From positions 10,331-74,330 of the forward strand of contig CALXCE010000005.1 in assembly GCA_944386725.1 (NCBI GenBank): a DNA stretch of 64,000 nt. Direction: 5' to 3'. Source of the DNA: an uncultured Clostridia bacterium (GTDB taxonomy: Bacteria; Bacillota; Clostridia; TANB77; CAG-508). The notes under the pieces are model-generated. The model ran no database searches. It worked only from the letters and a program-made list of their open reading frames with translations, and was not told the DNA's origin. The position numbers and the translations under genes are program-made. Each line of letters opens with the position of its first letter. Positions within the stretch are counted from its first letter, which is position 1. Positions 45,939 through 46,477 of this stretch are shown here, piece by piece.

Positions 45939-46200
45939 ATGGATACTAACATGATTACCTATTTAGCATGCATTTGTTTTCTTTTTATATTCGGAAGAAT
46001 TTTTATTTTACCACTCAAGAAAATATTAAAGTTAATATTTAATTCCGTTTTAGGTGGGATATGTATCTATGTCATCAACTTAATAGGTGGTGCTTTTGGG
46101 TTTCATATCGGTCTAAATTTTTTTACAAGCATTTTAATTCGGATTATTAGGATTACCAGGAGCAGTTTGTTTGATTGTTGTGAAATTGTTAATTGGGTGA
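45939..46200 (+). CDS. bofA: Pro-sigma-K processing inhibitor BofA; needs a +1 shift at CGG 46140
   Basis: ...NSVLGGICIYVINLIGGAFGFHIGLNFFTSILI|GLLGLPGAVCLIVVKLLIG. The joined length of 86 aa matches BofA. The unshifted frame runs on into the palindromic repeat. Confidence 0.8.
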
Positions 46201-46477
46201 AATGGGGACGTTTCTTTTTGCACATTTTTGTGAAATTAGGGACACATCTTATAAGAAATAGTTCATAATTGTTGTTATATATTATTTTTGCAACACCGCG
46301 TAAGCGACTAAACGAGCGGTAGCGAGTGCGATTGGAGCAACCAACCATTTTTTATTTTAGTGGTTGCGACATACTTTGGTAGTAAAAAAATAATATATAA
46401 CAACAATAAAGTATATCTACCAAAGATGTGTCCCTAATTTCACAAAAATGTGCAAAAAGAAACGTCCCCATTTCACC
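46196..46477. repeat. 282-bp palindrome (family A, GGGGAC-core) between convergent bofA and glmS
   Basis: Perfect 55-bp arms GGTGAAATGGGGACGTTTCTTTTTGCACATTTTTGTGAAATTAGGGACACATCTT (46196-46250) and reverse complement (46423-46477). Second paired block attgttgttatatattattttt / aaaaataatatataacaacaat. Relatively GC-rich non-palindromic core. Confidence 0.9.

Follow-up and report, generated by a model that had tools for sequence, protein, structure and literature searches.

Di Nocera et al. (2013) described genes resembling those of REP-associated tyrosine transposases (RAYTs; REP, repetitive extragenic palindrome) that lie between long terminal inverted repeats (TIRs) and not between GTAG REPs. 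These 'TIRtrons' encode 'TIRYT' proteins, and their TIRs share a common GGGGWSAS motif and belong to families of moderate abundance, present as singles, dimers and clusters (PMC3733652). Quentin et al. (2018) placed TIRYT in TnpA-Y1 subclass 2.1, which comprises long proteins with an HTH/DnaA-C-like tail (HTH, helix-turn-helix; PMC6006769), and this subclass corresponds to RAYT group 1 of Bertels et al. (2017), which is also present in Clostridia (PMC6006769, PMC5581495). No branch of the domesticated HUH transposases is larger or less well understood than RAYT group 1/TIRYT, for which no substrate hairpin has been recognised. The present analysis concerns a 64-kb stretch of contig CALXCE010000005.1 from an uncultured Clostridia bacterium (the window), in which a 282-bp palindrome (46196–46477) separates the convergent genes bofA and glmS. 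It is proposed that this palindrome is probably a non-autonomous element resembling a REPIN (REP doublet forming hairpins): a head-to-head dimer of TIR units, which are the cognate ends of a TIRYT-type, RAYT-like Y1 transposase (RAYT group 1, TnpA-Y1 subclass 2.1), enclosing an independent ~140-nucleotide (nt) module.

Architecture of the palindrome and its repeat family

The sequence-only reading of this DNA had described perfect 55-bp arms touching both stop codons, two GGGAC half-sites in each arm, and a second paired block around a core that is GC-rich for this genome, and all of these features were borne out. Repeat searches and self-BLAST showed the left arm (46196–46250, forward strand) and the inverted right arm (46423–46477, reverse strand) to be complementary at 55 of 55 positions, and at 97% over 60 nt when the flanks are included. 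Both GGGACGTTTC and GGGACACATC are present in each arm, and these boxes have seven matches in the window, against 0.25 expected. The left arm, which is a single 55-nt TIR unit, consists of an outer box (GGTGAAATG-GGGACGTTTC), an imperfect hairpin (TTGCACA-TTTT-TGTGAAA) and an inner box (TTA-GGGACAC-ATCTT). Within the arms, an inner inverted repeat (46268–46289 and 46386–46407) pairs at 22 of 22 positions and encloses an asymmetric core of 96 nt (46290–46385) with 45.8% GC, compared with 29.4% in the window. The 22-nt AT-rich repeat and the conserved core together make up the 140-nt apex module (46268–46407, forward strand), which is joined to the arms by a left linker of 17 nt (46251–46267) and a right linker of 15 nt (46408–46422, read directly from the sequence). 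The two linkers are non-complementary, and CTACCAAAG in the right linker is complementary to CTTTGGTAG at 46374–46382, at the 3′ edge of the core. An RNA fold computed over 294 nt has a free energy of −143.6 kcal/mol (z = −21 against shuffled sequences), and the fold is therefore far beyond chance.

The outer ends of the palindrome coincide with the ends of both genes. The right arm ends at 46477, abutting the glmS stop codon (46478–46480), and the left arm donates the last bases of the final Gly codon of bofA as well as its TGA stop (46198–46200). This TGA lies inside the arm and in the BofA-homologous frame, and that frame is offset by +1 from the start of bofA. One more copy, the third in the window, is a solo unit (50562–50618, forward strand) that is 86% identical to the arms, unpaired, and carries the inner box GGGGACAC. 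The solo unit likewise supplies a TGA stop (50565–50567), that of an open reading frame (ORF) at 49434–50567, and an ordinary terminator-like hairpin follows it at ~50650–50682.

Further copies of the arm, and an association with stop codons, were expected of a dispersed element, and both were found. A scan for the pattern GGGACGTTTC-N20-28-GGGACAC in one genome per species located at least 119 loci, mostly in Clostridia metagenome-assembled genomes (MAGs). Among the matches listed, to which all copy statistics here refer (n = 103, 88 and 99), about 100 copies come from uncultured Clostridia MAGs of 25–33% GC, with several copies per MAG, and the GC-rich matches look like chance. Within the same genomes, TIR units occur as singles, as dimers and in tandem arrays or clusters. 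The plasmid and phage collections contained nothing that matched the element by BLASTN, and when IMG/VR was scanned for the core and for the TIR pattern, all matches were chance ones in unrelated, mostly GC-rich sequence.

The family consensus is TGTCCnATTG-GGGACGTTTC-nTTT-X-TTTT-X′-nTTn-GGGACAC-ATCT, where X and X′ pair, so that a unit of ~55 nt comprises X′-N4-GGGACGTTTC, the X/X′ hairpin and N4-GGGACAC-ATCT. A hairpin of at least 5 bp is present in 88 of 103 copies and is built from 41 different arm sequences (GTCCA, GTCGC, GTGAA, GAGCA, GTCCC and others); as these still pair, compensatory change has preserved the hairpin. In 45 of 88 copies a 5-mer is common to the terminal 11-mer and the 3′ arm of the hairpin, compared with 21 (maximum 30) in shuffles. 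Conservation of the family ends 10 nt outside the first GGGAC, and the next three positions are A/T-rich and nearly G-free.

In 26 of 99 copies an ORF of 80 residues or more has its stop codon within −8 to +3 nt of the outer end of a unit; 12 of these stops abut it exactly, typically as TAA directly followed by TGTCC, and a further 11 of the 99 copies have a stop codon 4–30 nt away. A gene start facing away from the unit lies within 30 nt in 24 of 99 copies, with the unit ending directly at AGGAGG. The adjoining genes are housekeeping genes, including metS, lepA, nusA, era, radA, disA and rseP. Because the units are flush with stops and ribosome-binding sites, and even donate stop codons, they shape gene ends in these compact, low-GC genomes. 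At one locus (L006, 5753–6233), an ileS-like gene has a complete T-box leader upstream that is enclosed by two inverted units, the first of which precedes the leader and the second of which separates its terminator from the ribosome-binding site.

A Y1 transposase gene and acquisition at the glmS–bofA spacer

The sequence-only reading had suggested a search for RAYT- or IS200-like transposases elsewhere in the genome, and a RAYT-like Y1 gene was found between inverted copies of the unit in three genomes selected by pattern and four chosen independently. In the former (L037, L050 and L118), an inverted TIR pair in the window's orientation encloses an ORF of 256–313 residues that matches Pfam Y1_Tnp (E 1e-13 to 1e-15). 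Among NCBIfam models, the REP-associated tyrosine transposase NF047646 matches at E 1e-18 to 2e-20, compared with ~1e-3 for IS200, with bit scores of 66–73 that lie under the equivalog cut-off of 80. The proteins carry the HUH motif as HVH (NHVHL) and the Y---NP motif as YIHQNP or YIHYNP, which is the class-2 signature, and the C-terminal extension gives weak matches (E 0.002–0.2) to HTH_28/29 and sigma-region-4. The family comprises 2526 proteins at E ≤ 1e-20, whose source names include 'transposase [Clostridia bacterium]' and 'REP element-mobilizing transposase RayT'; a phmmer search of PDB sequences with the Y1 protein gave nothing at E < 0.01.

The unbiased test of this association used four Y1 homologues (58–62% identity; L254–L261) chosen by protein similarity only. 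All four genes are flanked by inverted GGGAC-type units, and all four lie in the order miaB-like gene, small ORF, Y1 gene, radA and disA. The outer ends of these units abut the upstream TAA; on the radA side, they abut the gene start or ribosome-binding site at no fewer than three of the four loci. Correspondingly, the Y1 gene is followed by radA and disA in L118 and by radA in L050, the comparison there covering downstream genes only. The Y1/HUH gene is the only type of gene found between such TIRs (7 of 7 cases), and it is single-copy in the seven related genomes with flanking inverted TIRs. In L254–L261, L118 and L050, a conserved hairpin (AAAAGTATAGCA...TGCTATACTTTT) occupies the 5′ intergenic region of the Y1 gene and could be an operator or attenuator.

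These observations bear on the idea that the palindrome is an ordinary miniature inverted-repeat transposable element (MITE) left by an insertion sequence with a DDE transposase. Its long terminal inverted repeats, small size, non-coding content and intergenic position would be typical of such an element, but inspection of 11 dimers or TIRtrons for flanking direct repeats revealed no target-site duplication, the units also occur singly and in tandem arrays, and in all seven cases the gene between the TIRs is of the Y1/HUH type. The absence of target-site duplication fits HUH/Y1 chemistry and argues against a DDE-type MITE, and this explanation is regarded as highly improbable.

The single line of evidence for mobility of the TIR units is an insertion polymorphism at glmS–bofA, which suggests that they can be gained there. 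The window and an identical contig (L241; GlmS 100% identical) carry the dimer with its module, and a second sample (L242), with three mismatches to the window, shows the glmS-side arm and a portion of the core, in which its contig ends. Where GlmS is 95% identical, the spacer holds either a single 44-nt TIR-like unit running from stop to stop (L262) or a TIR 3 nt past the stop, inside which every contig ends (L267/L268). Plain terminators are found at 92% identity (L263 and L269/L270) and, adjoining a different gene, at 88–90% (L264 and L265), and in L266 (88%) a bidirectional terminator hairpin of 37 nt lies between an A-run and a T-run. An intrinsic terminator, consisting of a hairpin and a U-tract, is recognised at the spacer in L266, L263 and L265. 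Five further genomes (L232, L208, L177, L123 and L135; GlmS 79–82%) carry a ~325-nt three-layer palindrome with the module at its tip, which starts right after both stops and has arms of a different type from those of the window. As the spacer of closer relatives holds no more than a plain terminator or one unit, the dimer and module were inserted at glmS–bofA, and as these relatives are without the module, two or more separate entries of it into this spacer seem likely. The length of BofA is unchanged, the relatives ending in GGA TAA or GGA TAG and the window in GGG TGA from TIR bases. For the solo unit, which follows a DAP-DH-like gene, synteny with contigs of the L232 group is lost.

Short-read contigs of several samples (L242, L267 and L268) end inside the TIR or core, and many of the listed Y1 proteins are known only from ~1-kb contigs. 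The TIR repeats systematically break metagenome assemblies of this clade.

Two local origins were also considered, a Tn7-like remnant at attTn7 downstream of glmS and a bidirectional terminator that has grown in place. The palindrome does lie directly after the glmS stop, each arm contains two direct sub-repeats reminiscent of TnsB sites, and relatives carry a terminator hairpin at the same position. Nevertheless, the units occur at dozens of unrelated gene borders, and the window holds neither tns genes nor a 5-bp duplication. Distant loci and species also carry the arms and the module, which therefore did not evolve in situ. Both local origins are considered barely credible; the Tn7/attTn7 idea was dropped on account of the copies at many unrelated gene borders.

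The REPIN-like reading suggests the following mechanism. The radA-linked, RAYT-like Y1 enzyme would act in trans on single-stranded DNA, binding the GGGAC-flanked hairpin, cutting it and rejoining it, and this reaction may copy TIR units into A/T-rich positions at gene borders. In the lineage of the window, the dimer and module would thereby have replaced a simple bidirectional terminator. Transcripts arriving from bofA or glmS are predicted to fold into a stable hairpin (−144 kcal/mol) from the stop codon onwards, which may serve as a 3′-end barrier or stabiliser. A promoter and terminator scan of the window's element gave no intrinsic terminator and nothing above shuffled expectation. As the terminator scan revealed no other terminator-like site for bofA or glmS, the palindrome presumably provides the 3′-end hairpin for both convergent transcripts. 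The claim that the locus is more than a terminator, namely a mobile or recruited 3′-end element with cargo, is thus supported by sequence comparison, through the family copies, their placement at stop codons, the Y1 link, the acquisition and the conserved module.

Several points weigh against this interpretation. No Y1 gene was detected by tblastn with the Y1 proteins within the 64-kb window, which derives from a metagenome scaffold of ~70 kb and not from a whole genome, or in 120 module-bearing metagenome loci; as the module has no Y1 link, it may spread or function by an unrelated route. Quentin et al. did not find REP-like hairpins near subclass 2.1 genes (PMC6006769), and the TIRYT literature documents no transposition event, excision product or biochemical activity for any TIRYT. 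GGGGWSAS is matched by the family consensus and by the solo copy at 50562, with one mismatch each in the GGGGACGT and AGGGACAC of the window arms. The invariance of the boxes in the scanned loci is partly by construction, because the scan pattern itself demanded both GGGAC boxes. Finally, no U-tract follows the palindrome hairpin.

Since the inner box of the solo copy, GGGGACAC, fits GGGGWSAS, the arms are taken to be a new member of the TIRYT kind. The covarying TIR hairpin and the fixed chromosomal home of the Y1 gene are unreported in the TIRYT papers (PMC3733652, PMC6006769, PMC5581495), and literature searches on RAYT/REPIN or MITEs in Clostridia yielded no description of the present element. 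With its compact hairpin unit between GGGAC boxes, fixed radA–disA position and natural insertion polymorphisms, this clade makes the enzyme–substrate relationship of TIRYT directly testable.

The apex module

BLAST located the core without GGGAC arms in L100, in L026 and twice in L051. A scan of metagenomes for GAGTGCGA-N0-1-TTGRAGCAAC, followed by nhmmer, gave 91 matches (86 unique), all in contigs of 25–37% GC and with up to three per 13 kb, and every module copy sits at the tip of a palindrome. The minimal module measures ~145–155 nt and comprises the core with AT-rich arms of 22–28 nt, of which the inner part, ATATATTATTTT, is conserved across genomes. The layers outside it vary: they are of the GGGAC type in the window, L176/L237, L154, L227 and L132/L206/L187, and elsewhere consist of GGTTCCGGGTTT or GGCTTAAGG units or of further types. 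A search for 'empty' GGTTCCGGGTTT-type dimers, which lack the module, gave one example only. The module is an independent, separately conserved and widely distributed passenger.

In the window, the core (46290–46385, forward strand) is predicted to fold into a four-way junction. Its closing stem P1 pairs 46295–46297 with 46378–46380, and the junction holds H0 (GC-GUAA-GC, 46298–46305), H1 (ACGA[GC-GGUA-GC]GAGU, 46312–46327) and H2 (UGGA[GCAACCA...UGGUUGC]GACA, 46333–46371), with one tandem G·A motif each in H1 and H2. A structure alignment of 39 non-redundant copies gave the same junction as a consensus: a closing stem with a covarying ACC/GGT base, GC-GUAA-GC, ACGA[stem]GAGU and UGGA[GCAAC...GUUGC]GACA. 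Compensatory stems include GC/GC, GTGC/GCAC and GCCTT/AAGGC in one helix and CAAC/GTTG, CTAC/GTAG and TTTC/GAAA in another. Helix positions are paired in 95.7% of cells, compared with 86.6% in shuffled alignments, and compensatory double changes number 94 compared with 34; none of 500 shuffles reached either value. When the helix partners are slid, pairing falls to 20–37%.

This covariation raises the possibility that the core is the point of the locus, as a structured non-coding RNA (a small RNA, 3′-untranslated-region element or ribozyme) that the stems present, protect or process. In addition to strong covariation in three helices, which collapses when the partners are slid, the GUAA GNRA loop and both tandem G·A motifs exist on one strand only, some copies have an optional extra hairpin, and the core is kept across many species despite differing arms. 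However, among loci with inverted repeats short enough to trust the assembly, the structured strand shows no sense bias relative to tandem neighbours (9 sense, 13 antisense). No conserved promoter or terminator of its own was seen in scans, the core is multi-copy (up to three per 13 kb) and always inside repeats, and the same fold could form in single-stranded DNA. At the gathering threshold, Rfam 15 recognised only the glmS ribozyme and one tRNA in the whole window, and in E-value mode it gave only spurious long-hairpin miRNA matches far below threshold for the element and nine other module loci; this absence from Rfam is counted as neutral. A functional RNA as the purpose of the locus is rated unlikely on balance, and since there is no strand bias, a selfish or single-strand DNA passenger is somewhat more likely for the module than a functional RNA. 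All-against-all clustering of 619 neighbouring ORFs showed that no protein family recurs beside the core, only the bofA/glmS locus itself being repeated, and module copies lie between convergent gene pairs 17 times and divergent pairs six times.

The orientation of the core differs between related loci. Relative to bofA and glmS, the core of the window is inverted compared with that of L232, L208 and L123, and at another locus, with flanks 94–100% identical, it is opposite in L130/L188 and L166/L198/L229. Such pairs would be expected of an inverton, in which the apex flips between the inverted arms and changes expression on either side, and a weak outward −35/−10-like match overlaps GCGACA...AATAAT. 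Against this, these pairs may be assembly artefacts, as short-read assemblers can give an arbitrary direction to a segment enclosed by long perfect inverted repeats, and breaks of contigs at such places are seen (L242, L267 and L268). No invertase or recombinase recurs among the neighbouring ORFs, most copies face the 3′ end of a convergent gene and not a gene start, and the covarying helices argue for a folded single strand over a promoter. An inverton is thus quite improbable.

The tip of H2 sometimes holds an extra perfect palindrome of up to 16 bp (L143, L214, L184, L197, L142 and L026), and in L051b, L147 and L139 H0 is followed by an extra hairpin of 51 nt. It seems that insertions in these genomes recur at the tips of hairpins. 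The GGGAC-type TIR dimers of L104 (5900–6020), L098 (5620–5800) and L032 (1990–2090) have another apex motif in common, approximately GGCTATTAcgtGGCACAtttGTCATTTTATAAAAA, inside an AT-rich stem of their own, which suggests several cargo types.

There is good support for the module as a candidate new motif, of structured RNA or single-stranded DNA, in abundant uncultured gut bacteria. More tentatively, and at less than even odds, the ~100-nt core and its AT-rich stem may form an undescribed class of structured nucleic acid that rides on unrelated palindromes, was gained independently at glmS–bofA in two lineages and may flip. It would then be a new mobile small RNA or ribozyme, or a single-stranded DNA signal (for example, in priming or HUH-enzyme processing), that uses hairpin tips as landing sites.

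The module also bears a likeness to ssoA of rolling-circle-replicating plasmids, the complementary-strand origins of phages G4 and f1, and the tips of parvovirus inverted terminal repeats. In all of these a long stem ends in a junction of several hairpins, in which some unpaired bases are conserved, and the two strands differ at the tip only; TAGCGA in some module copies resembles the ssoA CS-6 box. Unlike these signals, the module is chromosomal and multi-copy; no Rep or plasmid context was seen for it, and it has no match in the plasmid and phage collections.

Other features of the window and comparison with known repeats

The gene bofA (45939–46200, forward strand; Pfam BofA) requires a +1 shift at ...ATT TTA ATT C GGA... 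(the C at ~46140) to reach its conserved C-terminus, GLLGLPGAVCLIVVKLLIG, after which the TGA at 46198–46200 closes the BofA-homologous frame (...VKLLIG). Because this frame is +1 shifted, the ORF predicted with translation table 11 (45939–46268) runs into the element. The extra C is common to the window, L262 and L263, and L266 and the L232 group are unshifted. In the three carriers the +1-frame peptide GLLGLPGAVCLIVVKLLIG and its stop are identical, with 7–11 synonymous and no non-synonymous codon differences, and the shift site reads CGG in the 0 frame, a codon used less often than any other for Arg in the window (4 of 531). The shared extra C, the identical downstream peptide and the rarity of CGG favour programmed +1 frameshifting, with AUU-CGG-A in bofA as the candidate site, over a sequencing error or pseudogene.

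On the other side of the palindrome, glmS (46478–48316, reverse strand) encodes SIS and GATase domains and is preceded by a glmS ribozyme (48367–48522, Rfam match). A homologue of TraG/TraD-like coupling proteins (776 residues; 43083–45413, reverse strand) adjoins a DUF2508 (yaaL-like) gene and bofA; it is considered a conserved chromosomal gene and not part of a recent conjugative element, since its position is kept in L241, L262, L263, L266 and L269.

Other palindromes are present in the window. A second, shorter GGGGAC-type repeat forms an 80-bp palindrome (56940–57019) with perfect 29-nt arms (GGACATGGGGACGTAGATAATGTCCCCA) that occupies the whole gap between a TAA stop and the following gene's AGGAGG, and a solo copy of it (32104–32130) holds the stop codon of ORF 32109–32711. 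A 413-bp palindrome (35190–35602), with divergent ORFs on its two sides, is built of four nested pairs of arms; CCCTGGGGGGAAGATGG is part of the outer ones, and related sequence in L095 and L020 marks it as another repeat family. An imperfect palindrome of 174 bp (60764–60937) lies upstream of ORF 60973–61683 and has homologous stretches in L198, L020 and L072.

Among known repeats, the Correia/NEMIS, RUP, ERIC and bcr1 MITEs resemble the present element in being palindromic intergenic repeats of ~100–300 bp with strong hairpins that are co-transcribed with neighbouring genes. They are DDE-derived and make target-site duplications (for example, TA), whereas none were seen in the present family and its partner is an HUH/Y1 enzyme.

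The TIRtrons are closer. In both systems, a single-copy, RAYT-like HUH/Y1 gene lies between long inverted repeats with a GGGG(A/T)(C/G)A(C/G)-type box, the repeats are dispersed as singles, dimers and clusters without a GTAG tag, and the protein has a C-terminal HTH-like extension, although here it is recognised by weak matches. TIRYT repeats have been described mainly in Proteobacteria and Acidobacteria, whereas the present host belongs to the uncultured low-GC Clostridia. Unlike described TIRYT genes, the Y1 gene is fixed upstream of radA–disA, and, unlike the description of subclass 2.1, the unit contains a clear covarying hairpin between two GGGAC boxes. Furthermore, the outer ends lie flush with stops or ribosome-binding sites and the dimers carry conserved apex cargo, in both of which the family differs from described TIRtrons.

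The REPs, bacterial interspersed mosaic elements (BIMEs) and REPINs of E. coli and Pseudomonas share with the present element an inverted doublet that forms a long hairpin and is non-autonomous. REPINs and the present family are likewise tied to a domesticated, vertically inherited, single-copy Y1/RAYT transposase, and both are found at gene 3′ ends and between convergent genes, with a presumed role in the stability of mRNA 3′ ends. The canonical REP tetranucleotide GT[AG]G has no counterpart in the present family, in which neither GTAG nor GTGG is conserved and GGGAC boxes flank the hairpin instead, and the unit is larger, at 55 nt compared with 20–40 nt for a REP. Moreover, whereas the spacer of a REPIN is short and neutral, that of the present element is a conserved, structured module of ~100 nt, common to species with different arms.

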